From positions 1 through 22,828 of the IMG/VR virus record IMGVR_UViG_2737471841_000005: a stretch of DNA of 22,828 nt; one strand, given 5' to 3'. The notes under the pieces were generated by a model. The model made no database searches, was not told where the DNA came from, and worked only from the letters and a program-made list of their open reading frames with translations. This document shows, in pieces, positions 40 to 17,706 of this stretch (the first letter of the stretch is position 1; each line of letters begins with the position of its first letter). A program made the translations under genes and the position numbers. The DNA is from a virus (lineage: Duplodnaviria > Heunggongvirae > Uroviricota > Caudoviricetes).

Positions 40-402
40 GGGGCTGATTCTGGATTCGACGGGATTTGCGAAACCCAAGGTGCATGCCGAGGGGCGGTTG
101 GCCTCGTAAAAAGCCGCAAAAAATAGTCGCAAACGACGAAAACTACGCTTTAGCAGCTTAATAACCTGCTTAGAGCCCTCTCTCCCTAGCCTCCGCTCTT
201 AGGACGGGGATCAAGAGAGGTCAAACCCAAAAGAGATCGCGTGGAAGCCCTGCCTGGGGTTGAAGCGTTAAAACTTAATCAGGCTAGTTTGTTAGTGGCG
301 TGTCCGTCCGCAGCTGGCAAGCGAATGTAAAGACTGACTAAGCATGTAGTACCGAGGATGTAGGAATTTCGGACGCGGGTTCAACTCCCGCCAGCTCCAC
401 CA
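40..402 (+). ncRNA. ssrA: tmRNA (transfer-messenger RNA, SsrA)
   Basis: Begins GGGGCTGATTCTGGATTCGACGGG and ends ...GGACGCGGGTTCAACTCCCGCCAGCTCCACCA, 363 nt, matching my memory of E. coli ssrA; contains the tag reading frame; possible -10 TATACT at 20..25 upstream. Confidence 0.95.
129..161 (+). other. tmRNA tag-peptide reading frame (ANDENYALAA + TAA)
   Basis: GCA AAC GAC GAA AAC TAC GCT TTA GCA GCT TAA read directly in the sequence; canonical enterobacterial degradation tag. Confidence 0.9.
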
Positions 403-403
403 A
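358..403 (+). repeat. attL core: 46-bp direct repeat lying in the 3' end of ssrA
   Basis: ATGTAGGAATTTCGGACGCGGGTTCAACTCCCGCCAGCTCCACCAA recurs identically at 17707..17752; identity breaks on both sides. Confidence 0.85.
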
Positions 404-410
404 ATAAAAC

Positions 411-446
411 AAGGGGTTACGTGAAAACGTAGCCCCTTTTTCTTTG
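411..446 (+). terminator. Rho-independent terminator after ssrA
   Basis: Hairpin AAGGGGTTACG-TGAAAA-CGTAGCCCCTT followed by TTTCTTTGG. Confidence 0.8.
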
Positions 447-575
447 GTAGTGGCGGCAAAATGGCGATAGCCATGGACTAGGGTTGGGTACACCCACATT
501 GCTCTCTATCCTTATGAGTGATCGCACACACGCCTCTACTTTCAAGCTATATTCTAATCTCAATATGAGGCTACT

Positions 576-1289
576 ATGGACTTCAACCTGAACAAAAAAA
601 TGCCAGTTAATAGATATCTTGTGATAATAGTTTTTGTCCTTTTAATCTTAGCCTGTATGCAGTTTATTTATCTTTGCCTTCGTTCATTAAGCATTGCCCC
701 AAACTATACGGGGACTGTAAGTGACATTATAATAGCTACAACAAATATTATTTTAGCTACCTACGCCGTTCGTGCATTCAAAAACTTATTTAAAGATAAA
801 CTATCCGATAATGCCATTAGTAAAATAGATACAGCATTGATGTCTCTCGATGATTGCATAGATAGTTTTTCAAGCTTATTTTTAAATATGACACTTATTA
901 AGATTTATAAAAACACTAATAACCCCAAGGACCCTCAGTTAGTTAAACAGCTCGATGAAGCAGCAAAAAACATCGAAAAAGCAACAAGTTCAGCCTACAA
1001 GGCAAGATCTATAATTGGCTCATTAACTCGTTGGAATATAAGCTTAAACACAGAAAAAGGAATAAGACTAAACCAACTTACCGCTGATGTTTTTGAGTTA
1101 GGCATGCAGGCAACAAATATGTATATCGCACTAATAAATGAAATAAACCCTAACTCCCCATACAACTCTTTAACTCATAGACCATTTGATGAGTTATTTA
1201 ACGAATTTAATGAAGAAAAGACCAGAGTTGAAGACGAAAGCAATGAATTAAAAGAGTTCTCTATTCATGAAATATTTAAAATCAAATAA
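576..1289 (+). CDS. Hypothetical membrane-anchored protein (AT-rich cargo gene between attL and ogr)
   Basis: 237-aa ORF; ATG at 576 with GAGG 6 nt upstream; hydrophobic N-terminal segment (YLVIIVFVLLILACMQFIYLCL) then a charged, helix-prone domain; visibly AT-rich versus the phage genes; no family recognised. Confidence 0.7.
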   Translation: MDFNLNKKMPVNRYLVIIVFVLLILACMQFIYLCLRSLSIAPNYTGTVSDIIIATTNIILATYAVRAFKNLFKDKLSDNAISKIDTALMSLDDCIDSFSSLFLNMTLIKIYKNTNNPKDPQLVKQLDEAAKNIEKATSSAYKARSIIGSLTRWNISLNTEKGIRLNQLTADVFELGMQATNMYIALINEINPNSPYNSLTHRPFDELFNEFNEEKTRVEDESNELKEFSIHEIFKIK

Positions 1290-1366
1290 GTTATTATAGA
1301 ATAATTTTAAAAAATCATTTGCATTCTTCTTGTGTCAAAAATCAAATAACTGTCTCGATATTATTC

Positions 1367-1388
1367 AAAACCCGCCAGCGGCGGGTTA
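1367..1388 (-). terminator. Hairpin terminator downstream of ogr (possibly bidirectional)
   Basis: CCCGCC-AGC-GGCGGG stem-loop; on the minus strand it is followed by TTTT directly after the ogr stop. Confidence 0.55.
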
Positions 1389-1391
1389 GTA

Positions 1392-1607
1392 TCAGTAAAC
1401 TAATTGCTCCTGCATCCCTTTGGGATGCGGTGGGGCGGCACTGATTTTCTCGGGACGACAAACAGAACGAACAAAGGTTTCATGCGTTACAAACGTATGC
1501 CCACACTCAATATTAGTGCACTGATTGTAACGCTCTTTGGTTTGAGAGGAGACTTGAAAACTACTGCGAGTATGTGCGGCCTGACCACACAACGGACAAT
1601 TCATCAT
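1392..1607 (-). CDS. ogr: Ogr-type late transcription activator (C4 zinc finger)
   Basis: 71 aa, MMNCPLCGQAAH...CTNIECGHTF; Cys pattern and size as in P2 Ogr; located after gene D as in P2. Confidence 0.85.
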   Translation of the reverse strand: MMNCPLCGQAAHTRSSFQVSSQTKERYNQCTNIECGHTFVTHETFVRSVCRPEKISAAPPHPKGMQEQLVY

Positions 1608-1675: not shown

Positions 1676-2776
1676 TTATTCCATCTCAAGATCACCAATC
1701 CTCACTTCAAGCTCAAGACTGGTCGTAAAACCGTTATCCGGGCTGACGGTATGTGTCAGAGTCGTAATGGTCCATTCCGCATCATCTATCGGCTGTTTAA
1801 AGCCACTGACCTTCACAGGCATTTCTGTGTAGAGGTCTGCCCGCCCTTCCGCCAGTTGTAGCGAGAATGATGCAACGCCGCGTTGCAGGCGTTCCCACTG
1901 CATTTTCGCTGCCCGTTCGGCGTTGCTCCGGTTGGCATAAGTGCGATTAAGTACCAGCACGTTTTCATCCGTACCCACCAGATAATCGCCCTGCTTCGCT
2001 TCCGGCTCTTTCTTCTGCTTCTTAGTCTTGCGCTTACGCTTCACCGTAGTGCTTTCTTTCTTCGCGGGTTCGCGGGTATGCAACCAGCTGGCAATTACAC
2101 CCGTATAGGCTCCGCGATCTGCCAGGGTAAAGCGGTGACTGTCGCCGTCTTTACGTGTGATAGAGATCACCGGCAGTGGTTTACCGCTGGCGCTTTTGCC
2201 CTGTCCCTGCCGGATGAATAACAGATTGCCATTTTTCACCGACGCGATGGCACCGTACTGTCGCGCCAGCCGCATCAGAAAACTACCGTCACTCTCATTA
2301 GTCTGGTCTATATGCTCTACGAGCTTATCCGACAGGTCTTTACCCAGTGCCATCTTCAGCTTATGCCGCGAGGCTATTTCCTTCACCACTTCCCCGACGG
2401 TGGTCTTATGCCACGATTTTTCACGGCGGGTATTCAGCGTTTCCCGAAAATCAGCACTTCGCGCCCGGATAGTCAGGCGATCCGGTGCGCCAGTGTGTTC
2501 AATCTCGTCCACCGTGAATGCCCCTTTCGGGAAAAGCGGCTGCCCCTTCCAGCCCAGCGCCAGCGTGATGACCGCACCACGGCGCGGCAGCACGATTTTT
2601 CCGTCGGCGTCGTCCAGCTCCAGATCAAGCTGGTCTGCTTCAAAGCCCCGATTGTCCGTCAACGTCAGACTCATCAGGCGGTTATCCAGCACAGTGGTGA
2701 TATCCTTCCCCTCAATACTGATGCTGAATGCGGGAGTTTTGTTGCCTTTGTTAAGCAGTTCAGAGCTGAAATTCAC
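1676..2776 (-). CDS. D: Tail protein gpD (P2 late gene D family)
   Basis: 366-aa ORF, last gene of the FI-FII-E-T-U-D synteny; GTG start overlapping the gpU stop. Confidence 0.8.
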   Translation of the reverse strand: MNFSSELLNKGNKTPAFSISIEGKDITTVLDNRLMSLTLTDNRGFEADQLDLELDDADGKIVLPRRGAVITLALGWKGQPLFPKGAFTVDEIEHTGAPDRLTIRARSADFRETLNTRREKSWHKTTVGEVVKEIASRHKLKMALGKDLSDKLVEHIDQTNESDGSFLMRLARQYGAIASVKNGNLLFIRQGQGKSASGKPLPVISITRKDGDSHRFTLADRGAYTGVIASWLHTREPAKKESTTVKRKRKTKKQKKEPEAKQGDYLVGTDENVLVLNRTYANRSNAERAAKMQWERLQRGVASFSLQLAEGRADLYTEMPVKVSGFKQPIDDAEWTITTLTHTVSPDNGFTTSLELEVRIGDLEME

Positions 2777-3258
2777 GACAGCAGCCCTCCCACCGTTTTA
2801 CTGATATCGCTTAAGGCAGACGTTGCCGTGTCCTGCAGATTATTCAGTTGAGTACTGAGATCACCGAACATATCGGACAGGGATTCATCCACCCGTTTTA
2901 GCGAAAGGGTGAACTCAATCCTGCGCGGCATACCGTCGCGGAAAAACTCCGTTTTAGTCTGATTCAGTCCCTCAATCACATACATGCCGTAAATCGTGCC
3001 GCTGCCTTCAATCAGGGGCCATGCTTTCCCCTGTTCTGCCATCTGCTCCAGTGCCAGCAACGACAGCCTGCCGCCTGTTATCTCCGGCATAAGAACACCG
3101 GAAAGCGTCAGCATGTCGTTTTCCGGTCCCAGAAACTGCGTGGACGGACGACGGTTTACCCGGCTGTTTGCCGCATGTCGCCAGCTGCGTTGATACTGCA
3201 GTTCCTGATACGGAACGGTGCGCAGCATAAACACGTACAATCCCAGCACCATCATCAT
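2773..3258 (-). CDS. U: Tail protein gpU
   Basis: 161-aa ORF between tape measure and D, translationally coupled on both sides; P2 gpU size. Confidence 0.8.
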   Translation of the reverse strand: MMMVLGLYVFMLRTVPYQELQYQRSWRHAANSRVNRRPSTQFLGPENDMLTLSGVLMPEITGGRLSLLALEQMAEQGKAWPLIEGSGTIYGMYVIEGLNQTKTEFFRDGMPRRIEFTLSLKRVDESLSDMFGDLSTQLNNLQDTATSALSDISKTVGGLLS

Positions 3259-6200
3259 GCGTCGTATCCCCCCTGATCGCTGTAGTTACTCCTGGCTTTT
3301 GCCTTCAGCCTGCGTTCACGTTCATCAAGCTGGCGTGCCACCTCCCGCGCAATATCCTGCGCACTTTGTCCTGGCTGCGTCTGAATGATGATCTGCGTCG
3401 GTGCCTCAATCCGTTGAACGAGCGGCACAGTGGCTGCGCGACTCACAATTGCTTCTCCACCTTTCGCGGGAAGTGCCAAAGGGTGCAACGGTGGAAGCTC
3501 TGCTGGCGCGGCAGCAACGCCCATCATTCCGGCAACAACGGCAGCCAGTGCAGCTGTATTTCTCCGGCTGGTCACATTTGCCGGGCCGTTAACAATTTCC
3601 GGCCCGTTTTCACCGACGATGCCAAACTGCCCGCGCGGGATATACCCGCCGCTGTCATACATCCCCGCAAAGCCATATCCCCATGACGGAAAACCACCCG
3701 ATGGCATCATCACTTTACCGTCTGCATTCACCGTCGCAGGTTGCTGACGCGTCACGCTTTCCGGCAGTTTTGCCTTTGCGGCCTCTTTACTGACAATGCC
3801 AAGTTTCTCCAGCAACCAGGAAACGCCGGATTTCAGGGAGTCCAGCGGATGCATGACCATATTCAGCCCTTCCGCCAGTGCCTCTCCGAATCGCCGCCCC
3901 ATTGCCGCTGCACTCTGCAGTTCGGCAGAGGTCGACTTAACGGGCGTCAGCAGATCAGTAAACCAGCCCCACAGCGCCTGTACTTTGTCGCCAATCCACT
4001 GGAACACGGGCTTAAGCGGTTCGAATGCTGCACTGATGGGACCTGCCGCCGCTTTGAATCCTTCCACCACGCCACCAAGAAATGCGGTGATGGGTTGCCA
4101 GTATTTCCAGACAACCAGCGCCACGCCCGCCAGTGCAGTAACCACAAGACCTATCGGACTGAGCAGAGCACCTAACAGACCAGATACGGCATACAGGGCA
4201 ACGCGCAGCATCGCCAGTGGACCAGATGCCAGTACTCGCAGCACCGTGCCTGCGGCGACCAGTCCACCGCGCAGTACCGCCAGAGGATTCATAAACATCA
4301 CAGCAACAGCACGTAAACCGGATAATCCAGACCGCAAAAGTGCAACCGGCGCACCTGCTACAGTTTTCAGGACATTTCCCGTCAGTGATGCCGTGCGGCG
4401 CAAAGACGACAACGGCGCAGTAAGTAAACCTGCGGCGTTGCCCGATGAAGCAAGCCCGCGTCGCAGCAGTGCCAGTGGTGCGCCAGCCAACCAGGACAAC
4501 GCGCTGCTGGTTCGAGTTACTGCTGCCGTAACAGAAGGTAACGTTTTGATACCCAGCACAGAGAATCCCAGACGGATCACTGCCAGCGGCCCCAGCACTG
4601 CAGCCAGCGCCACCGCTAAGGTGCCGAGGCCTACTGTAACCGCAGCCACAACAGCCGCTACTTTCATCAGTGTGCCTGTCAGTTCCGGGTTAGCTTCCAC
4701 CCAGCGGCGCAACGCCCCCGTGATTCTTTTCACCGTGTACAGAATATCCATCAGCGGCTGGCGCAGCGTTTCGCCCAGGCTGCTGAAGGTGTTCTGCGCT
4801 CCGGTTTTGACCAGCAACCACTGAGCAGAAAGTGAGTCTTTGTTGATGTCGGATTCTTTCTGCATGGAACCGAGCGCATCATTGCCCGCTGTCAGTTTTA
4901 GCTGGCGCTGCAGTTCCGGAAGGTTGTTTGCCAGTTTCGCCGCGTCATCACCAAACTCTTTACCAAACAACATGGTCATGGCAGACAGACGCTTGTCCTG
5001 CGGCAGTGCGTTCACCTTCTCCAGCACACGCTGGATAGTTCCCATCGCATCCTTCGTCATCTGCTTTTCAATCACTTCAGGATTGAGTTTCAGCAGATTC
5101 ATCCCTTCAAAGAAACTCTTGCTTTGCATGGTGGCAATGGACAATTCACGCACCATCGCGTTTGCTGCACTGGCTGCAACCTCCGGCGCAGCGCCCAGTG
5201 TCAGAAAGGTGGAACCCAGTGCCGCCGCTTTACGATAATCCAGACGATCAGCCACACCGCCCAGGCGTTGCATGACATCAATGATGTCTGCCCCTTTCGA
5301 CATGGCGTTATCATCCAGATAGTTCAGCGCATCACCGAGCTGTTCAATATTGCGGGTAGGGATTTTGTAGAGCTGGGCGATTTTCCCCAGACTTTCTGAC
5401 AGTTCATCCGCTGGCAGCTCAAAGGCTGTTGCCGCCTTTGCTGCCGTGCTGGCGAAGGCCAGCAGATCACGTTTCTGGTCTTCCCAGCTGTCGTCAGGGT
5501 TTGCGACGTTCATGCGCGCCCCACCTTCAACCAGTGCAGCGAAGTCCACCGCACCGTTTTCCATCGGCAGCTGTTCGCTGGCAGCCTTGATGGCATCCTG
5601 CATTTCATAAAAACGCGCAGTGCGGTTGCCATTATCGTCACGCAGACCATTGACCTGCTTTGCCACACCTTTCATGGCATCTTCCATGCTGGTATAGCTT
5701 TTTACTGCCGCCATCACTGGCGCACCCATTGCCAGCCCTGCAGCCGTGGTAGTGGCTCCGGCTCCTGCGATGCGATCGCGCACTTCAAGCCGTCTTGAGT
5801 ATTGTTCTCTGGCAGCGTTCATCCGTGCCTGTTGTTCACCCAGACGTTTAAGTGCTCTTTGCTGGCCCTCCAGTGCCTGCCTTGTTTCTTCAGCATTTTT
5901 CTTAAGTTCTCGCTGGGCACTACTGAGTTGTCTGGTATCAATCCCTGATTCTTTAAGTGCCTGACGTTGTCTCTGGACCGCCCCCAACAAGCCGTTATAG
6001 GTCTGCTGAAGTTCCTGTACTCGTGTTTTGGCCTGACTGAATAACTTTGCCTGCGCGGCGGTTGGCCTGTTAGTGGCAGCAAATTGTGTGGCGAGTTTTG
6101 CCGCCTCTTCGCGGGCTGCGTTCAGGTTGTTGGCTGTTATGGCTAGTTGCGAGCGCGTCTTGCGAAATTCATCAATTCTGCCAGCCTGCTTATTCAGTTC

Positions 6201-6332
6201 TTTGAGGCTGTTTCGGGTATTCTGAATTGCGCCAGCCAGCTCTTTCGAACTGGCCTGTGCAGCACGGAATGGGCGGGTGAGTTTGTCAACCGTATTAAGA
6301 ATGACCTGCAGGCGCAGGTTATTATCACTCAT
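3255..6332 (-). CDS. T: Tail tape measure protein gpT
   Basis: 1025-aa ORF; N-terminal coiled-coil-like region, Ala/Gly/Leu-rich hydrophobic stretches, C-terminal domain; position after E/E' as in P2. Confidence 0.9.
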   Translation of the reverse strand: MSDNNLRLQVILNTVDKLTRPFRAAQASSKELAGAIQNTRNSLKELNKQAGRIDEFRKTRSQLAITANNLNAAREEAAKLATQFAATNRPTAAQAKLFSQAKTRVQELQQTYNGLLGAVQRQRQALKESGIDTRQLSSAQRELKKNAEETRQALEGQQRALKRLGEQQARMNAAREQYSRRLEVRDRIAGAGATTTAAGLAMGAPVMAAVKSYTSMEDAMKGVAKQVNGLRDDNGNRTARFYEMQDAIKAASEQLPMENGAVDFAALVEGGARMNVANPDDSWEDQKRDLLAFASTAAKAATAFELPADELSESLGKIAQLYKIPTRNIEQLGDALNYLDDNAMSKGADIIDVMQRLGGVADRLDYRKAAALGSTFLTLGAAPEVAASAANAMVRELSIATMQSKSFFEGMNLLKLNPEVIEKQMTKDAMGTIQRVLEKVNALPQDKRLSAMTMLFGKEFGDDAAKLANNLPELQRQLKLTAGNDALGSMQKESDINKDSLSAQWLLVKTGAQNTFSSLGETLRQPLMDILYTVKRITGALRRWVEANPELTGTLMKVAAVVAAVTVGLGTLAVALAAVLGPLAVIRLGFSVLGIKTLPSVTAAVTRTSSALSWLAGAPLALLRRGLASSGNAAGLLTAPLSSLRRTASLTGNVLKTVAGAPVALLRSGLSGLRAVAVMFMNPLAVLRGGLVAAGTVLRVLASGPLAMLRVALYAVSGLLGALLSPIGLVVTALAGVALVVWKYWQPITAFLGGVVEGFKAAAGPISAAFEPLKPVFQWIGDKVQALWGWFTDLLTPVKSTSAELQSAAAMGRRFGEALAEGLNMVMHPLDSLKSGVSWLLEKLGIVSKEAAKAKLPESVTRQQPATVNADGKVMMPSGGFPSWGYGFAGMYDSGGYIPRGQFGIVGENGPEIVNGPANVTSRRNTAALAAVVAGMMGVAAAPAELPPLHPLALPAKGGEAIVSRAATVPLVQRIEAPTQIIIQTQPGQSAQDIAREVARQLDERERRLKAKARSNYSDQGGYDA

Positions 6333-6761
6333 CGTTGGCCCCGCTTCTCTGAATCGCTTTATACCGCCATTCCAGCACTTCGGTCAGCGGCATAACGTCA
6401 GTAACGGATGGCGGCCAGTGAAAGATGGTGGCGATATCAGCCACCAGATCGTCAACCGTCAGGCTGTCGGTAAACCGGCAAGCACCGACTTCTTCAACAA
6501 AAAAGTGACAACCTCAACCGACATGGCAGTGAGATCTGCCGGGTCCATCTCTGCGATTTCCTGTGCAGTCAGTGCCGGACTGGAGATGCGGGGGATCACG
6601 GTCATCATCGCGTTCACATCCATATCCATAATGGCCTGCAGGCGTGTGCCGCGCAGCGCACCGGACTGCGGTTTACGCAGCACAATTTCGGTAATTTCTG
6701 TTTTACCGCGCATGATGGGAGTATCCAGTTTAATAGTCTTTTCAGTCTGCTTATCGCTCAT
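6325..6761 (-). CDS. E': gpE+E' fusion made by programmed -1 ribosomal frameshift at T TTT TTG (6498..6504)
   Basis: Slippery heptamer on the minus strand at codons 87-88 of E; the -1 frame stays open for 57 codons (VEEVGACRFTDSL...RSGANDE) and stops at TGA 6325..6327 overlapping the gpT start; about 145 aa total, as for P2 E+E'. Confidence 0.7.
6459..6761 (-). CDS. E: Tail assembly chaperone gpE (in-frame product)
   Basis: 100-aa ORF MSDKQTEKTIKLDTPIMRGK... between FII and T; carries a T TTT TTG slippery site near its 3' end. Confidence 0.85.
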   Translation of the reverse strand: MSDKQTEKTIKLDTPIMRGKTEITEIVLRKPQSGALRGTRLQAIMDMDVNAMMTVIPRISSPALTAQEIAEMDPADLTAMSVEVVTFLLKKSVLAGLPTA

Positions 6762-6815
6762 TTTGCTGTCCTGTAAATTGGGTTCTGGCGCGGCATTCCG
6801 CGCCGTTCAGATACA

Positions 6816-7331
6816 TCAGAGGCCGAGGGCGTTGCGGTGCGCTTCCATCAGGTCCACACCGTCCACAATTTCCACCATGTTGATAAGGTCCACTTCATAG
6901 AGCACCTCACCATTGATAGTCAGCTTCGCGTAGCTGTTGGTACTGGTCACTTTGGTGGTGTTGCTTTCGCCCGTCTTCCACTCGCCGGAATCCACTTCTT
7001 TGTGACGTCCACGCACCACAAGCTCCACGGCCTGCACTTCTCCGGTATCGTCACGCTGGATAGAGCCGGTGAAGCGCAACTGGATGCCATCCACCGTGGC
7101 TTTGCCCATCTGTTTAAACAGCAGCAGTTCAGTACCACCAATGGAAAATTCTGTGTCCAGCGCACTGTCATCAAGCCCCAGATCCACATCCACTGCACCC
7201 GGCATTCCGCCGCCGCGATACTTCTCATATTTGCGGGTGAATTTCGGCAGCGTCAGCGACTCAACGATCCCCTGCCAGTTGTTCCCGTCATTAAACAGGT
7301 TCAGGTGTTTTAATTTGCGTGGTAAAGCCAT
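6816..7331 (-). CDS. FII: Tail tube protein gpFII
   Basis: 171-aa ORF MALPRKLKHLNLFNDGNNWQG..., size and position as in P2 FII. Confidence 0.9.
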   Translation of the reverse strand: MALPRKLKHLNLFNDGNNWQGIVESLTLPKFTRKYEKYRGGGMPGAVDVDLGLDDSALDTEFSIGGTELLLFKQMGKATVDGIQLRFTGSIQRDDTGEVQAVELVVRGRHKEVDSGEWKTGESNTTKVTSTNSYAKLTINGEVLYEVDLINMVEIVDGVDLMEAHRNALGL

Positions 7332-7340
7332 GTTGTCCCC

Positions 7341-8513
7341 TTACGCGCTGACCTGGCTGGAGAAATTCACCAGGTACTGATCGGTGATGCGCTGACGCAG
7401 CATCAGGTTTTCAAGTGGCGGCACTGGCGTGTAGTCGTAGTCGATGGTGAGTTTTCCGGCTTTCAGCGTGTCTTTGTCGTTCACCGACTCATCCAGCCAG
7501 CAATCACCACCAATGAGATAGCCCTGACTGACCAGGCTGCGCATTTTGGCGCGGATACCCTCGATAATGTCGCGGGCCAGCGACGGGTTAAGCGGTTTAT
7601 CCACCGCCCACATGTGTGCTTCTGCCATCGTGTCCATCAGTACCTGCGCTGTACGGGTGTAGTTCTCGAAGGCAAAGAGCGGGTCATCACTCAGGCAGCG
7701 GGAACCCCAGAAGCGGAAACCATCCTTGCGCACAAGCGTGGTGACGTCGTTCTGGTTCAGCAGACCTGCATCGGTTGCCGGGTCCTGCAGATCCCAGAAC
7801 ACATCAGCAGAAATTCCGGTGACACCGTTCACGCCCACGTTGGACAGGCTTTTGTGCCATCCGGTCTGCTCATCAATTTTGGCGCGCAGACCGAGCGCAC
7901 GGGCGGTGGCATAAGCCGTTGCTTCGGCATTCAGCACCGTGTCCCAGCCAGTAAAGTCGGGCCAGATCAGCATTCCTTCACGCTGACTGAAGTTTTCACG
8001 GTAAGTGATCGCCTCCTGTACCGTCTTGCAGCCATACGCTGACAGGTAAGCAAACCCACGCAGGCTTTGCGCCACGCTCAGCAACTCAGTAGCTACCGCC
8101 TTGGTGTCGTGGCCTGGCACGCCGAGAATGCGCGGTTTAACGCCGAGCTGTGACTGGGCAGATAACAGGGCTTTCATACCTGTTTTTTTACCTTCAGCAG
8201 TCACTGCGCCGATGATATTGGTCGTGGTTTCGTCTTCCGTTTCACCCTGCGGCACACGCACAACAATGGTCACGGGTTTTGCCTGGTCAGCGATGGCATC
8301 CAGCGAACGGGCCAGAGTACCTGACTCACCCGCTTTACCGCTGGCAGTCAGCACATCAGTGATCAGCACGGGTTTATTAAGAGGAAACATTTTTGCATCG
8401 GCATCATCGCCCGTGCAGACCATACCCACGATGGCGGTGCTCACCGTGGTAATAGATCGGGTGCCTTCGTTGACTTCAACAACGCGCACCCCGTGGTGGT
8501 AATCCTGAGCCAT
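7341..8513 (-). CDS. FI: Contractile tail sheath protein gpFI
   Basis: 390-aa [22 protein letters not shown]..., first gene of the tail operon; AGGAGG RBS upstream. Confidence 0.9.
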
Positions 8514-8589: not shown

Positions 8590-8607
8590 TGTGTCGTTAT
8601 TCACACA
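8590..8607 (-). promoter_or_regulatory. Candidate Ogr-dependent late promoter element (TGT-N12-ACA dyad) for the FI operon
   Basis: TGTGTCGTTATTCACACA dyad about 85 bp upstream of the FI start codon; matches the P2 late-promoter activator site pattern. Confidence 0.4.
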
Positions 8608-8655: not shown

Positions 8656-9228
8656 TCAGGGGGATTCATTGATCTTATTTGCCGGAAATTTTCTATAAAT
8701 GGTAGAAACGCCTACATCAAAAATCAGTGCAATACGCTGTCTTGATTCTCCGGCCTCGAGTAAACGCCCAATCTGTGCCCACTGTTCGGTGGTCAACTTA
8801 GGATGGCGTCCACCTACTCTGCCTTTGGCACGAGCTGCAGCCAGCCCTGCCCTGGTACGTTCAACTATCAGTTCGCGTTCCATTTCAGCCAGGGCACCCA
8901 TGACATGAAAAAAGAAACGGCCCATTGGGGTACTGGTATCAATACTGTCAGTCAGGCTTCTGAAATTCACACCACGCTGGCGCAACTCTTCTATCAGCGT
9001 AACAAGATGCCGCATACTGCGCCCCAACCTGTCCAGCTTCCAGACAACCAGCGTGTCTCCTGCCGATAGTGTCCTGAGTAGTTTTTTCAGCCCCGGTCTG
9101 TCGGACTTAGTGCCACTGATTTTGTCCTCAAAAATCTGCTCACATCCCGCGCAGTTCAGTGCATTACGTTGCAAATCGGTGTTCTGGTCATTTGTTGACA
9201 CGCGTACATAGCCAATAAGCATGATCAT
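8656..9228 (-). CDS. Serine DNA invertase, Pin/Gin/Cin/Hin family
   Basis: 190 aa, MLIGYVRVSTNDQNTDLQRNAL... with catalytic Ser motif and C-terminal HTH; likely true start at the MLIGY Met (9222). Confidence 0.9.
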   Translation of the reverse strand: MIMLIGYVRVSTNDQNTDLQRNALNCAGCEQIFEDKISGTKSDRPGLKKLLRTLSAGDTLVVWKLDRLGRSMRHLVTLIEELRQRGVNFRSLTDSIDTSTPMGRFFFHVMGALAEMERELIVERTRAGLAAARAKGRVGGRHPKLTTEQWAQIGRLLEAGESRQRIALIFDVGVSTIYRKFPANKINESP

Positions 9229-9302: not shown

Positions 9303-9663
9303 AGCAGCGAAACGGGGTGTGGGAACAGGGGAAAATCAGATACCGGACATGGCTTCTTTTGCCAGTGGTGATGGATGGATGAAATTACCCAACGGTAAAA
9401 TTCTGCAATATGGTCGAGGTGAGGCTATGCCGAAATTATCGACGCAAACAATGAGGATTACATTTCCTATCCCTTTCCCTAAAAAAGCGGACTGCGCCAT
9501 TCTTACCCATTCTGGTGATGGCGGTGCGCCTTTAGGCGCTGGGCGAGGGTTCGTGATGACTGCAGAAGGCCCTACGTTAACCGGCTTTAATTCTGCTTAC
9601 AGAACGTCATCAACCAGCGACACGGTATCTATGCATTACAGTTGGTGGGCTGTTGGTGAGTAA
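9277..9663 (+). pseudogene. Orphan tail-fibre variable C-terminal segment (Sv'-like)
   Basis: Reading frame opens at the crossover site and runs away from the invertase; Gly/Ser/Thr-rich fibre-tip-like sequence; no constant N-terminal fibre part in the window. Confidence 0.45.
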
Positions 9664-9674
9664 TTTTATTCAGG

Positions 9675-9850
9675 GTGATTTATATGAACGAATATGTTTA
9701 TAGTGCCAAGCATAATGCTTTTTTCCCTGTGGATATGATTGATAAATATAAATCAGTAGGATGGGATTTATCAGATGCTAAGGAGGTGAATCAAAATATT
9801 GTCAGTGAGTTTATGGCTGAACCGCCACAAGGAAAAGTCCGTATTTCCGC
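9675..9850 (+). pseudogene. Tail-fibre assembly (Tfa/U'-like) gene, N-terminal fragment
   Basis: Starts MNEYVYSAKHNAFFPVDMIDKYKSVGW, resembling the N-terminus of phage tail-fibre assembly proteins; recognisable sequence stops after about 55 codons where the gpA-like gene overlaps on the other strand. Confidence 0.45.
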
Positions 9851-10951
9851 GATAAGCTCCAGACCTTTAACACAGACCATCATCTCATTGCGGCGATGCG
9901 CAGGGTTGCTGCTGCTGGCGTTTACCACATCTTCCATATCCAGCGTGTCGCCGTCTTCGTTCACCAGTTCATGAGAACGAAAAAACTCCAGCGACTTACG
10001 GCGCTGCTCACGTTTATGCATCACGGCTTCATAGCTGACATAGGGGGATGCTTTTTTGCTGACCAGGCAGACAGCACGCAACTGCTCTTCCCGCCATTCG
10101 CAACGCATCTTCCATAATTTCCGATACCACCAGTCGGCACACAACATACGCGCCAGCGAACCCGGAATGAGTTCATAGGGCACGGGTTTACGGCGGTTTC
10201 TTTTCCGACGGAGTTGCTCAAACGCAGGCGGAATAACATCCAGACGCAGGGTTTCCGCTGCCACCTTTTCCCATGTTTTGCGGATTTCTTCTGGCTTAAC
10301 GTCATCGGTGGCATACAAATCGCCACAAGCTGCATCAAGACACATGCTCATATGCGCAGCAACAAGGGTGGACAGGCGTTTCACCTGATCCTGACTCATT
10401 TCAGGCAGGATCAGCAGGCCGTCCAGCCCTTCATGGCTTGCCATAAAGCGAAAAGAAGTGGATAGCTGACTCTCGCGTACATGCTCCAGTCGTTCCAGAC
10501 ATGGCTTAATCGTCTCACGCAAATAGCGGGAATAAGCCTTTGGCCTGCCCAGGCTGCTGAAGTATTCAATACGTTGCATCAGCGGCTTGCTGATATGGGA
10601 AGGCTGGGCGTTGACGTCCGCCAGAATGACCATGTCTGGATTAAAACGCTGCTGCTCATGCGCCAGCTTTGCCCGGCTAATGAGCTTATCCTGCTCCATT
10701 TCGCGCTGGACAGGATCACGGGATTCATTAAAGAAATAACGCTCCCAGACCTGATCACTCAGTGCCTCGCGGCGCAGTTGTTCCTGCTCGTTATCGGCAG
10801 CGTACAGAGTGATCAGGTTTGAAAGCGCAGAAACCGGCGCAACTTCTGCCGGGTCCAGATAAGGGTTAATAGCCTTTTTCGGGCTGTCCCATGAGAATGC
10901 TGCGGCGGCCTCGTTAAAGCCGCTGCAGTTGTTCATATCAGCATGGCTCAT
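9791..10951 (-). pseudogene. gpA-like replication initiation protein, C-terminally truncated by a deletion
   Basis: 386-aa ORF coupled to dam upstream (ATGA overlap) in the gpA position; about half the length of P2/186 gpA and ends in non-conserved sequence overlapping the tfa fragment. Family call is by position and weak recall. Confidence 0.45.
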
Positions 10952-13627: not shown

Positions 13628-13685
13628 AGTGCAGTATCTCCCGATTAAGGTTTGGTTTACGTCGTTTTATCTCGTTTTACTTGAT

Positions 13686-13729
13686 TCAATATTTGATACA
13701 TCGAGATACTACGATCCAATATTTGATAC
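13686..13729. repeat. Two 13-14-bp direct repeats (CAATATTTGATAC) spaced 30 bp apart, bracketing the pR -10; candidate CI operators
   Basis: Copies at 13686..13699 and 13716..13729; second tandem pair TCGTTTTA at 13662..13669 and 13672..13679. Confidence 0.45.
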
Positions 13730-13734
13730 GTCAA
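13706..13734 (-). promoter_or_regulatory. Candidate lytic promoter pR for apl-cII (-35 TTGACG, 17-bp spacer, -10 TAGTAT)
   Basis: Minus-strand hexamers at 13729..13734 and 13706..13711 with 17-bp spacing, about 75 bp upstream of the apl ATG. Confidence 0.55.
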
Positions 13735-14380: not shown

Positions 14381-15397
14381 ATGACCATCAGAAAACAGCC
14401 GAACGGAAAATGGTTGTGTGAGTGCTATCCCAATGGACGCAATGGTAAGCGCGTGCGTAAGCAATTTGCTACGAAAGGCGAAGCCATTGCTTTTGAAAGC
14501 TTCACAATGGAAGAAGTGAATAAAAAACCGTGGTTGGGTGAAAAGGATGATCGGCGACGCCTATCAGAATTAATTGAGCTTTGGTATTCCCTGTATGGTC
14601 AGACACTCGCAGACCCCAAGCGCCTCATGGCGAAACTTAGAATTATCTGTAATGGTCTAGGCGACCCCATCGCCTCAGAACTGACAGCCGGTGACTTTAC
14701 GAAATACCGCGAAGCACGATTAAAAGGTGACGTTCGTAACGAAGACGGCACACTAATGTCGCCAGTAAAACCACGCACGGTGAATCTTGAGCAACGTAAC
14801 CTATCATCGGTTTTCGGCACATTGAAAAAACTAGGCCACTGGTCAGCACCAAATCCTCTCGCCGGGCTGCCAACATTTAAAATCGCTGAGGGGGAACTGG
14901 CGTTCCTGACCTCGGAAGAAATTAAACGTCTGCTAGATGCCTGCGCTGATTCTCAAAACCCCAGTCTGCTTTTGATTGCAAAAATATGCCTGGCCACCGG
15001 CGCACGCTGGAGTGAAGCTGAAAACCTGCAGGGCCATCAGTTATCTAAATACCGCATCACTTATACCAAGACGAAGGGTAAGAAAAACCGCACCGTGCCG
15101 ATATCTCAAGATCTGTATGACGAACTCCCCAAGAACAGAGGGAAGCTATTCACCCCGTGCAGAAAAGCCTTTGAACGAGCAGTAAAGCGAGCTGGCATCG
15201 AGCTGCCAGAGGGCCAATGCACTCACGTGCTACGTCATACATTCGCCAGCCATTTTATGATGAATGGCGGAAACATACTGGTGCTGCGCGATATTCTGGG
15301 CCATGCCGATATAAAAATGACGATGATTTACGCCCACTTTTCGCCCGATCACCTTGAAGATGCGGTAACTAAAAACCCTTTATGCAACTTAAGATAG
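14381..15397 (+). CDS. int: Tyrosine integrase, P2/186 family
   Basis: 338 aa; N-terminus like P2 Int (PNGRNGKRVRKQFATKGEAIAFE), catalytic ...TGARWSEA..., HVLRHTFASHFMMNGG and MIYAHF (R-H-R-Y). Confidence 0.92.
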   Translation: MTIRKQPNGKWLCECYPNGRNGKRVRKQFATKGEAIAFESFTMEEVNKKPWLGEKDDRRRLSELIELWYSLYGQTLADPKRLMAKLRIICNGLGDPIASELTAGDFTKYREARLKGDVRNEDGTLMSPVKPRTVNLEQRNLSSVFGTLKKLGHWSAPNPLAGLPTFKIAEGELAFLTSEEIKRLLDACADSQNPSLLLIAKICLATGARWSEAENLQGHQLSKYRITYTKTKGKKNRTVPISQDLYDELPKNRGKLFTPCRKAFERAVKRAGIELPEGQCTHVLRHTFASHFMMNGGNILVLRDILGHADIKMTMIYAHFSPDHLEDAVTKNPLCNLR

Positions 15398-15777: not shown

Positions 15778-17511
15778 CTACTCAAGGAGATATTCTAACT
15801 CATCTTTTATCGGGATAATTTGCTCATAAAGTCGGTGATATGACTTCCCAATTGCGCCTCTAAATTGTATTAACTTTGGTGGCTTACTACCTATATTAAT
15901 AATATGGTCTTGAGCTATACCTGGGTAGGGATCAATAAATACAATTTCAGATATACCTAACTGATAAGCTTTTTTCGCACACAACTCACAGGGACTGGCA
16001 GTTGTATACAACTTCCCCCCCAGAACGCCAATACCACCATATTTTGCAAGTTGTAAAAATGCGTTTTCCTCAGCATGTAATGCACGTGTATGAACTTGAT
16101 TACCTTTTTTCTCTTTATCAAGATCATTATGTATATCTTTAAAACAATAAGATAAGTTCCTGCCTCTATAAATATCACCAGTTTTATCTATCGCCCTAAA
16201 ATTTAAGAGTTTCTCATTAGCTTTAATTCTGAAAGAACTATTATTTCTCTCATAATGACTGTACGTTTTTTCATCAAAATCGTTCATTAGGCCATCTAGA
16301 GATCTCATAGAGCAAGGAATCTGACCGTTGGCAACATCATTCCAACCAACTGATTTTATTGAATTATCACCATCAGTTACTACAGCTCCCACCTGTCTAG
16401 ATATACAGCCAGAGTTTAATTTTACCGTATACGCAACTTGCATAACCCTTTCCATTGCAGTAGGTGTTATCAGACCAGGATGCTTCATCAGTGCGATGTA
16501 CCACGCTAATTGTGCTTTTAAAATATTGTCATTATCAAATTCATTTTTTGGGTTAAAAATGTGTATATCTGATAGTTCAATACATTTAGTTACATTTGGA
16601 TTGGTGAGATGTTTGTAAGAGTTATCACCTTTACCTGACTCTACAGAATCTATTTCCTCTATCTGCTTTTCTGAAAACTTATGTAGTTTCCGCAAATAGT
16701 TTGTTCGATGTTCATCTGGGGCATTTATTGACATTAAATGAAATGCAGAATATCTATCCTTAAAAAATTTTGCCTCATATGGATTTCTAATAGCATCTAT
16801 GACAATTAATGCGTTATCTCTTTTGCTTTTTCTTATTAATTTAATAACCCTATTAATAGTTTCCGGCAAATGAAAAACAGATTTAGGCATAAACTCTTTA
16901 TCTTCAAAATCGACTTCAATACGCCCACGACGTCTAATTGACTTACCTGCTAACTGATAGGCTGAAACATATAAATTTGAGTTTATCTCATTTAGTTCAG
17001 CTTTGAATTCTTTAGTAAATTTTCTAACTAACTTCAAAATTGATATAAATTTATTAATCGTTTTTTCATCAAGCTTCAATTCACTATTATGATCAAGCAA
17101 ATTCTCAATTACATTTTTAAATCTTGTCAAAATGAGATTATCTGAGAATACACCAAAAGTTAATACAATATCTAAATGCTCTTTACTGATAAATTTATTA
17201 GATGATAGAATGAATTCAGAAGCTTCCTCAACTGTTAACATCAGAAGATACGCTGAGATTAGGTCACTCACCTTAATTGAGTAAAAATTTTCCCAGTGAT
17301 TTTCTGCGAATTTTTTAACTATATTATAACGATGGACATCCAATCCCTTGTAAAACCCCTGTAATTTACTTACATCAGGGAAGACTGTTTTTTCGTTTTC
17401 AAGAATATTAGCTGTTGTTGTGCAACCAGAACCAGTTCGACCTGTCAAACCGACTAAAATAAACTGCCCATTTTCAAGGAAAAGCTCACTAACGAATTTT
17501 TTTTCTTTCAT
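15778..17511 (-). CDS. P-loop kinase-like / cytidine-dCMP deaminase fusion protein (AvcD/Dcd-type anti-phage candidate)
   Basis: 577 aa from ATG 17511 (GTG at 17514 in the track); N-terminal P-loop-like VGLTGRTGSGCTT, C-terminal zinc deaminase motifs HAEENA (around 16075) and PCELCAKK (around 15990); strongly AT-rich; sits between int and attR. Confidence 0.85.
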   Translation of the reverse strand: MKEKKFVSELFLENGQFILVGLTGRTGSGCTTTANILENEKTVFPDVSKLQGFYKGLDVHRYNIVKKFAENHWENFYSIKVSDLISAYLLMLTVEEASEFILSSNKFISKEHLDIVLTFGVFSDNLILTRFKNVIENLLDHNSELKLDEKTINKFISILKLVRKFTKEFKAELNEINSNLYVSAYQLAGKSIRRRGRIEVDFEDKEFMPKSVFHLPETINRVIKLIRKSKRDNALIVIDAIRNPYEAKFFKDRYSAFHLMSINAPDEHRTNYLRKLHKFSEKQIEEIDSVESGKGDNSYKHLTNPNVTKCIELSDIHIFNPKNEFDNDNILKAQLAWYIALMKHPGLITPTAMERVMQVAYTVKLNSGCISRQVGAVVTDGDNSIKSVGWNDVANGQIPCSMRSLDGLMNDFDEKTYSHYERNNSSFRIKANEKLLNFRAIDKTGDIYRGRNLSYCFKDIHNDLDKEKKGNQVHTRALHAEENAFLQLAKYGGIGVLGGKLYTTASPCELCAKKAYQLGISEIVFIDPYPGIAQDHIINIGSKPPKLIQFRGAIGKSYHRLYEQIIPIKDELEYLLE

Positions 17512-17706
17512 CACGTCCCACTTATGAATGCAAGAACAATTAGCATATTAATTATAATTTATTAACTAATTTTATTCTAGATGCTTGATGTAATGGCGGC
17601 ACTTTGGCGGCAGAGCATTAAAAACGCGTAAGACGAGCAAATACAAAATAACACTAACACATTGTTTTCAAACATAATCTACTGTTTTTACTATAATAAA
17701 AATGGT

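Follow-up and report, generated by a model that had tools for sequence, protein, structure and literature searches.

The locus considered here raises a simple question: what is a small AT-rich gene for a membrane protein doing between the attachment site and the late-gene activator of a P2-like prophage, and does it serve the phage or the host that carries it? The DNA analysed is a stretch of 22,828 nucleotides of Caudoviricetes virus DNA (IMG/VR record IMGVR_UViG_2737471841_000005), referred to below as the window. It starts with the tmRNA gene ssrA (positions 40–402, plus strand; detected by ARAGORN and by Rfam model RF00023 with 295.8 bits), whose 3' end is the integration target. Over 46 nt, the sequence of the ssrA 3' end (358–403) is found again as a direct repeat with 100% identity at 17707–17752, and these two copies are the attL and attR cores of a P2/186-like prophage integrated at ssrA. 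Inside attL follows a phage-borne copy of the ssrA terminator region (404–464, plus strand, with a hairpin at 411–438 of −20.1 kcal/mol and z of −4.6), which is 94% identical to the copy at 21924–21990. Between the att sites lie ogr, the tail genes D, U, T, E, FII and FI, a DNA invertase, CII, CI and the integrase (int, 14381–15397). The late-gene activator ogr (1392–1607, minus strand; Pfam Ogr_Delta, 4.8e-22) is the backbone gene nearest to the gene of interest, and this match together with the att repeats bears out the location between attL and ogr that had been proposed in an earlier sequence-only reading of the window. At the other att end, between int and attR, an AT-rich gene (15778–17514, minus strand) encodes a 578-aa anti-phage defence protein of the dCTP-deaminase type (PADLOC dCTPase, 1.1e-145; Pfam dCMP_cyt_deam_1, 1.6e-14). 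A protein of 580–584 aa with the same dCMP_cyt_deam_1 domain is found beyond int in the related loci L002–L005.

Some other features of the window deserve mention in their own right. Just upstream of the CI repressor gene are two 20-nt direct repeats (13683–13702 and 13713–13732; GATTCAATATTTGATACATC), 90% identical and 30 nt apart, which are probably operator sites of the immunity switch. A tandem second element follows attR (17753–21990) and contains a broken AIDA/Ag43-like autotransporter (17912–18238, 18267–20369 and 20309–21301). A 131-nt stretch at 21602–21732 has 76% identity to part of the invertase gene, and a third, partial att-like core with the native ssrA terminator is located at about 21912–21990. 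Finally, an AT-rich ORF on the minus strand (22085–22828; DUF5508 match, 1.6e-166) runs off the end of the window.

The ORF at 576–1289 (plus strand, ATG start) is the first gene inside attL and encodes, as claimed earlier, a protein of 237 aa, here called the orphan protein, which is of the WP_000347141.1 type and annotated as 'hypothetical protein'. The ribosome-binding site assigned to it also stands: a Shine–Dalgarno sequence GAGG (567–570, plus strand) is located 5 nt before the ATG, and its GAG is conserved in homologous loci. Its foreign composition is equally plain, with a GC content of 32.2% (30.7% at third codon positions) against 55% in the late genes (1676–8513) and 47% in the window as a whole. 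No sigma-70 consensus promoter was found upstream of the ORF in a stricter scan, and the best sigma-70-like site, CACACA-17-TATATT at 525–553 (plus strand, 8/12), is weak and a candidate only. The TGT-N12-ACA dyad of late promoters is absent from positions 404–640 and present at 8590, upstream of the tail-sheath operon; for lack of this dyad, an Ogr-dependent late promoter upstream of the ORF is ruled out.

One signal had been assigned to the wrong gene. The hairpin downstream of the ORF, described in the sequence-only reading as belonging to the cargo gene, consists of a GC-rich stem (1370–1376/1380–1386) followed by UUUUGAAUAAU on the minus strand. Because it is common to a sister prophage with an empty slot (L016, see below) and has its U-tract on the minus strand only, it is the terminator of ogr (1370–1386, minus strand) and part of the backbone, which rules it out as the cargo gene's own terminator; a search for the latter found none. 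The Hfq-binding sRNA isrK gave an Rfam match across this terminator and the end of ogr (1365–1428, minus strand; 3' end of the gene), but at 19.4 bits it falls short of the gathering threshold of 50 (E = 0.2) and probably arose by chance. An RNA element in the cassette was rejected, as the Rfam matches are sub-threshold chance matches only.

The extent of the inserted DNA is given by comparison with the sister ssrA prophage of E. coli EC96 (L016), in which ogr is located 117 bp from ssrA with nothing between them. By blastn, window positions 301–471 match L016 1402–1572 with 99.4% identity and positions 1367–1747 match L016 1603–1976 with 89% identity. As both flanks match, the 895 bp at about 472–1366 (plus strand) are an insert that replaced about 30 bp. 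Among 5426 complete E. coli genomes the ssrA–ogr junction is empty in 16 and occupied in 13 (11 at about 99% identity and 2 at 77%), so that the insert is polymorphic, present or absent, at a slot that is fixed and flanked by conserved backbone genes. The segment at about 472–1366 is a self-contained 'moron' cassette with one gene, inserted between attP and ogr in a prophage of the P2/186-like kind.

The gene is not restricted to this slot. It occupies the ogr–att position in the window, in an Enterobacteriaceae isolate (L010) and in E. coli prophages L013, L015 and L018. Divergent members are found between gpS and gpV, which we take to be the position of P2 orf30, in one case alone (L021) and in the other together with an unrelated 246-aa gene (L014). 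In L020, a homologue follows an unrelated 397-aa gene in a position next to the att region, on its int side. The same gene hence recurs in different slots and phages, as morons do. Every homologue has a GC content of 28–33% in a locus of 46–55%, and in all three slots the family gene is opposite in strand to the flanking late genes. The family was found only with P2-like prophages or their remnants. The int–att slot and slots within the late genes are accessory and defence hotspots of P2-like phages (bioRxiv 10.64898/2026.02.27.708500). The ogr–att position is absent from the slots quantified in that 2026 survey, which do include int–att, and falls within the 'tail protein to CI' hotspot of a 2024 survey, which spans the att region in P2-like phages (bioRxiv 10.1101/2024.10.15.618418).

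The genes that accompany some members provide no sign of a fixed partner. The 246-aa gene of L014 (1247–1987) and the 397-aa gene of L020 (6776–7969) are AT-rich and located immediately upstream of the divergent members; their products have no Pfam or PADLOC match, the RES-domain match of the 397-aa protein being insignificant (E = 0.05). In the Enterobacter ssrA island of L006 (9018–11400), a 203-aa and a 374-aa protein, both without a family match, adjoin a stand-alone homologue. The 203-aa protein has an N-terminal membrane helix and a helical domain; as a remote homologue of the orphan family it was rejected, with an hhalign probability of 0.2%. A conserved two-gene system was likewise rejected, since the partners in L014, L020 and L006 are mutually unrelated and match no family, and the orphan gene is therefore a stand-alone module. 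In one metagenome contig (L019, 850–1102) the homologue is preceded by the 5' half of ssrA only, with a HlyD-like gene upstream instead of smpB, an arrangement that reflects either a rearrangement or a chimeric assembly.

The family is small and narrowly distributed. A collection of 5.8 billion proteins contained 12 clusters with 52–99% identity, and a profile HMM run over 1.84 billion representatives retrieved 4, all from Enterobacteriaceae. There was 1 match in 185,579 species-representative genomes, 4 in IMG/VR viral contigs and 3 in JGI metagenome contigs. The named hosts are E. coli, Salmonella, Enterobacter species and Cronobacter, and every family member is annotated as "hypothetical protein". 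The exact window protein is present on 264 contigs. Homologues with 34–89% identity align end to end, and the pairwise dN/dS ratio is about 0.2 (0.17–0.24 where synonymous sites are unsaturated). The full-length homologues and these ratios establish the 237-aa ORF as a real coding gene, and the ratios indicate that it is under purifying selection. One truncated allele, of 127 aa, occurs in strain TUM1887.

Database searches associated the protein with no described family. In Pfam nothing was found at E ≤ 1 for the window protein beyond two chance matches. PADLOC-DB v2 (5027 models) yielded no family at E ≤ 1 for the window protein and none at E ≤ 0.1 for the divergent members P0013–P0015; PHROGs and NCBIfam gave chance matches only, and a sequence-profile search of the PDB gave nothing below E = 0.1. 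By tblastn, the window protein and two divergent members had no match in 50,697 phage records, which include P2 and 186, and the window protein had none in 72,556 plasmids. Accession WP_000347141 was mentioned in none of the papers searched. Homology to a housekeeping or structural phage protein, which would have spoken against the sequence-only reading, was thus seen neither in Pfam, PADLOC, PHROGs, NCBIfam and PDB nor in the phage genomes. The protein family is undescribed and outside the current defence catalogues, although an AT-rich single-gene membrane-protein moron in a P2-like hotspot is already well known as a kind.

Several of the prophages that carry the gene have decayed, independently of one another. 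The prophage in the window is defective: its collinearity with the complete prophage of strain PEC1011, to which it is 99.3% identical, ends at position 9304. This breakpoint falls in the invertible tail-fibre segment beside the invertase gene (8656–9228), and the invertase may have brought about the deletion. Beyond this point follow a truncated replication gene A (9791–10951), a Dam methylase and the immunity region; the baseplate, lysis, capsid, terminase and portal genes and the A–Q hotspot are missing. In L002–L005, what remains are backbone fragments and a split integrase, with both att-proximal cargo genes intact. In the prophage of E. coli TUM12355 (L024), the tape-measure gene, the portal gene and A are truncated and a 238-aa homologue and the other cargo are intact. 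In Enterobacter loci L006–L009, the homologue stands alone after ssrA with a remnant of the ogr terminator and no P2 genes. The retention in decayed prophages together with the low dN/dS argues for a benefit to the host over a role in virion production. The earlier claim that the gene is cargo is strengthened by the empty-slot sister prophage, by the mobility among three slots and by this retention.

As a separate observation, L024 (25080–27416 and 33223–34778) is another defective ssrA prophage with intact cargo at three hotspots, namely the 238-aa homologue, a 778-aa AAA ATPase at the A–Q hotspot, and a dCTP-deaminase-domain protein with ThyX after int.

The sequence-only reading had described the product as one N-terminal membrane helix followed by a charged helical domain. 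The charged helical domain holds; the single helix does not, as there are two (residues 14–35 and 48–68). Membrane helix 1 (615–680, plus strand) has a Kyte–Doolittle hydropathy of about 2.8 and, in most homologues, a Q, E or D at position 29. Conservation within the family is highest in a block (696–779, plus strand) that comprises a short loop, A-P-N-Y-T-G-T, and membrane helix 2. The hydropathy of helix 2 is 1.38 in the window copy and 1.7–2.1 in the other twelve sequences, and on these values the family has a two-helix membrane hairpin. The block has the consensus P-x-[YF]-T-G-T-x-S-D-I-x-I-A-x-x-N, covering the loop and the outer half of helix 2, and the invariant residues S49, D50, I53, A54, N57, A64 and A67 are on one face of the helix. 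The C-terminal domain (807–1250, plus strand) is a four-helix bundle with helices at residues 78–112, 120–148, 160–190 and 204–225. It is charged (26 K and R, 27 D and E), and its invariant residues, K83-I84-D85, R152-W153, E174, F204, L207, F211 and F234, are concentrated toward the membrane-proximal half, the loops at the far end being variable.

An AlphaFold2 (AF2) model built on the family alignment has a mean pLDDT of 77.7. The four long helices reach about 90 and the N-terminal helices 13–37 and 48–72 have low confidence at 51–70; the C-terminal tail pairs with the 152–156 loop. A Foldseek search of the PDB found no match at E ≤ 1e-3, and the fold matches are to generic four-helix bundles only; in BFVD, two uncharacterised proteins of one uncultured myovirus were matched. 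Counts of K and R in 13 homologues are 3–4 before helix 1 in most, 0–2 in the 12-residue loop and 3–5 just after helix 2. The positive-inside rule applied to this distribution is the sole basis of the predicted topology, with both termini inside and the bundle cytoplasmic. One divergent member, P0014, is without the N-terminal extension. The layout is therefore a short basic N-terminus, two membrane helices, an invariant loop of 10–12 residues and a four-helix bundle of 150 aa. A lipoprotein of the Cor or Llp type was rejected, since the lipobox-like I-L-A-C27 of the window copy is not conserved, position 27 varying among C, T, S, A and V in the family; a cleavable signal peptide was also rejected, as the hydrophobic core of about 22 residues is too long. 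We are highly confident of the descriptive account as a whole, that is, of the cassette, the protein layout, the confinement to P2-like prophages, the mobility among slots and the selection.

The function of the protein is more speculative. The sequence-only reading pointed to superinfection exclusion or abortive infection as a possible role. The location in accessory and defence hotspots of P2-like phages, combined with the architecture, leads us to guess that the orphan protein is an anti-phage factor of some kind, a guess to which we assign slightly less than an even chance; the argument from location is weak because P2 hotspots also bear non-defence cargo. More specifically, the protein could be a self-contained sensor-effector at the inner membrane that excludes phages by abortive infection in the manner of SieB, which reportedly aborts superinfecting phages. 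This is the mechanism that we rank first, tentatively and at odds well below even for its full detail. Transcription of the gene from the prophage would not depend on the Ogr-driven late operons, as suggested by its orientation opposite to the late genes in every slot and by the lack of the late-promoter dyad; no convincing promoter was seen, and expression in the lysogen is presumptive. At rest the cytoplasmic bundle would hold the membrane hairpin inert. A product of the superinfecting phage would perturb the bundle, after which the polar faces of helix 2 (D50 and N57, with Q/E29 of helix 1) would associate between protomers, and the associated protomers would leak ions, leading to collapse of the membrane potential and abortion of the infection. 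The large conserved cytoplasmic domain and a polar face of helix 2 able to drive oligomerisation favour such a sensor-effector, and exclusion is also favoured by the known defence gene, of the dCTP-deaminase type, that the same prophage bears at the opposite att site. Rousset et al. (PMC9122126) note that where known defence systems include membrane proteins, these act as a rule as suicide effectors. The abortive reading is weakened by the truncated allele, the generic fold matches and the low-confidence membrane model. It is weakened further because the strongest conservation is in the predicted periplasmic loop and the outer half of helix 2, which fits a protein that blocks phage entry at least as well.

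In that alternative the protein would act like T4 Imm, P22 SieA and HK97 gp15: the hairpin and the invariant periplasmic loop would bind a host inner-membrane component or the incoming ejection or tape-measure proteins, DNA translocation would be blocked, and the cell would survive. Besides the conservation of A-P-x-[YF]-T-G-T and the outer-leaflet half of helix 2, the existence of a single gene without a partner and its residence in prophage cargo slots are in line with entry exclusion, and HK97 gp15 is likewise a moron-encoded membrane protein. However, only about 10 residues are predicted to be periplasmic, whereas two thirds of the protein form a well-folded, conserved cytoplasmic bundle that an entry blocker does not obviously need. 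There is also no homology to SieA and no match to a Sie family in PHROGs or Pfam, and we consider entry exclusion unlikely. The same degree of doubt applies to a lysogenic-conversion or fitness factor unrelated to phage defence, which could act in envelope stress, in a transporter or signalling complex, or as immunity to a membrane toxin. This possibility draws on the gene's maintenance, under purifying selection, by prophages that have lost the capacity to form virions and as a stand-alone remnant at ssrA in Enterobacter, on the absence of a match to any defence model, and on the generic likeness of the bundle to the sensor and ligand-binding bundles of chemoreceptors and histidine kinases. 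A general fitness gene is harder to reconcile with the confinement of the family to P2-like prophages or remnants, its rarity (13 of 5426 complete E. coli genomes and 1 of 185,579 species representatives), the predominantly anti-phage nature of the known cargo of these slots, and the lack of a linked transporter or kinase partner.

A third explanation holds that the protein assists the phage itself during lytic growth or lysogeny, for example in the timing of lysis or the regulation of injection or excision. Two loci have the gene inside the late region between gpS and gpV, near the lysis genes, and a small membrane protein is reminiscent of holins and antiholins. Yet about half of the closely related ssrA prophages do without the gene, it is located on the strand opposite to the late operons with no late-promoter dyad, it survives in prophages lacking capsid, lysis and replication genes, and none of the 50,697 deposited phage genomes, P2 and 186 among them, contains it; we regard such a role as very improbable. 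The chance that the ORF is fortuitous or decaying and has no function is smaller still and can be neglected for practical purposes. Its annotation solely as a 'hypothetical protein', the failure to detect a promoter and the one truncated allele would be compatible with that view, but full-length homologues down to 34% identity with dN/dS of 0.1–0.3, a confidently predicted C-terminal fold, invariant motifs and the exact protein on 264 contigs are not, and the conservation data in effect already refute it.

A considerable part of the anti-phage repertoire of E. coli comes from P2-like prophages, and new defence systems have been discovered in their hotspots time and again. The 895-bp candidate described here was missed by the defence catalogues, bears signs of selection by the host and has a very narrow distribution. 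It is conceivable, with a probability that we place somewhat below even, that the family is a new single-protein anti-phage family, in which a hairpin and a bundle form a sensor-effector, that it is found in P2-like prophages only, in at least three hotspots, and kept by the host after prophage decay, and that the ogr–attP junction is a further productive defence slot of ssrA-integrating P2-like phages. If the protein does exclude phages, it would represent a new membrane-acting single-gene system, and the ogr–att junction, besides the int–att side, would be worth searching for cargo. If it does not, it is one more orphan moron, and the current understanding stands either way.

Comparison with known systems places the protein among several partial likenesses. 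The four-helix bundles of chemoreceptors (Tar/Tsr, 4HB_MCP) and sensor kinases share a generic fold with the orphan protein, but the 4HB_MCP ligand-binding domain is periplasmic and located between two membrane helices, whereas the orphan bundle follows both helices and is predicted to be cytoplasmic; it has no Pfam match to 4HB_MCP. A Pfam profile match at E ≤ 1 was likewise not found for the two-membrane-helix effectors SLATT_1 to SLATT_6 and DUF4231. T4 Imm, P22 SieA and HK97 gp15, the last a moron-encoded membrane protein within the tail genes, are also small inner-membrane proteins of phages or prophages; they differ from the orphan protein in showing no homology to it (SieA; PHROGs, Pfam) and in being without a large predicted cytoplasmic four-helix bundle. 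Homology to SieA, SieB, RexB or P22 gp17 was rejected, as no similarity was detected.

The closest architectural analogue is SieB of P22 and lambda (Pfam PF14163), a superinfection-exclusion protein of the abortive type that is expressed from the prophage. SieB belongs to a lambdoid and not a P2-like phage group, and there is no sequence match: BLASTP gave E-values of 2.2 and 25 and the family HMM 1.5 and −1.3 bits for P22 and lambda SieB, with no Pfam match. We know of no internal product of the orphan gene that would correspond to Esc of SieB. Both are single prophage genes on the strand opposite to their neighbours, with products of 184–192 aa in SieB and 237 aa here, and P22 SieB has two N-terminal membrane helices and a C-terminal soluble domain (about 115 aa), the same prophage-encoded layout that hydropathy and the AF2 model indicate for the orphan protein. 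With regard to its genomic setting, the gene differs from the cargo of P2 hotspots (old, tin, Z/fun and orf30, the systems of Rousset et al. 2022, and the PD-T4 and PD-lambda systems) in having no match to a PADLOC model or a deposited phage genome, but it resembles them in being an AT-rich, variable insert at a few fixed slots; the known inserts are independently transcribed, as this gene may be, and many of them are anti-phage.
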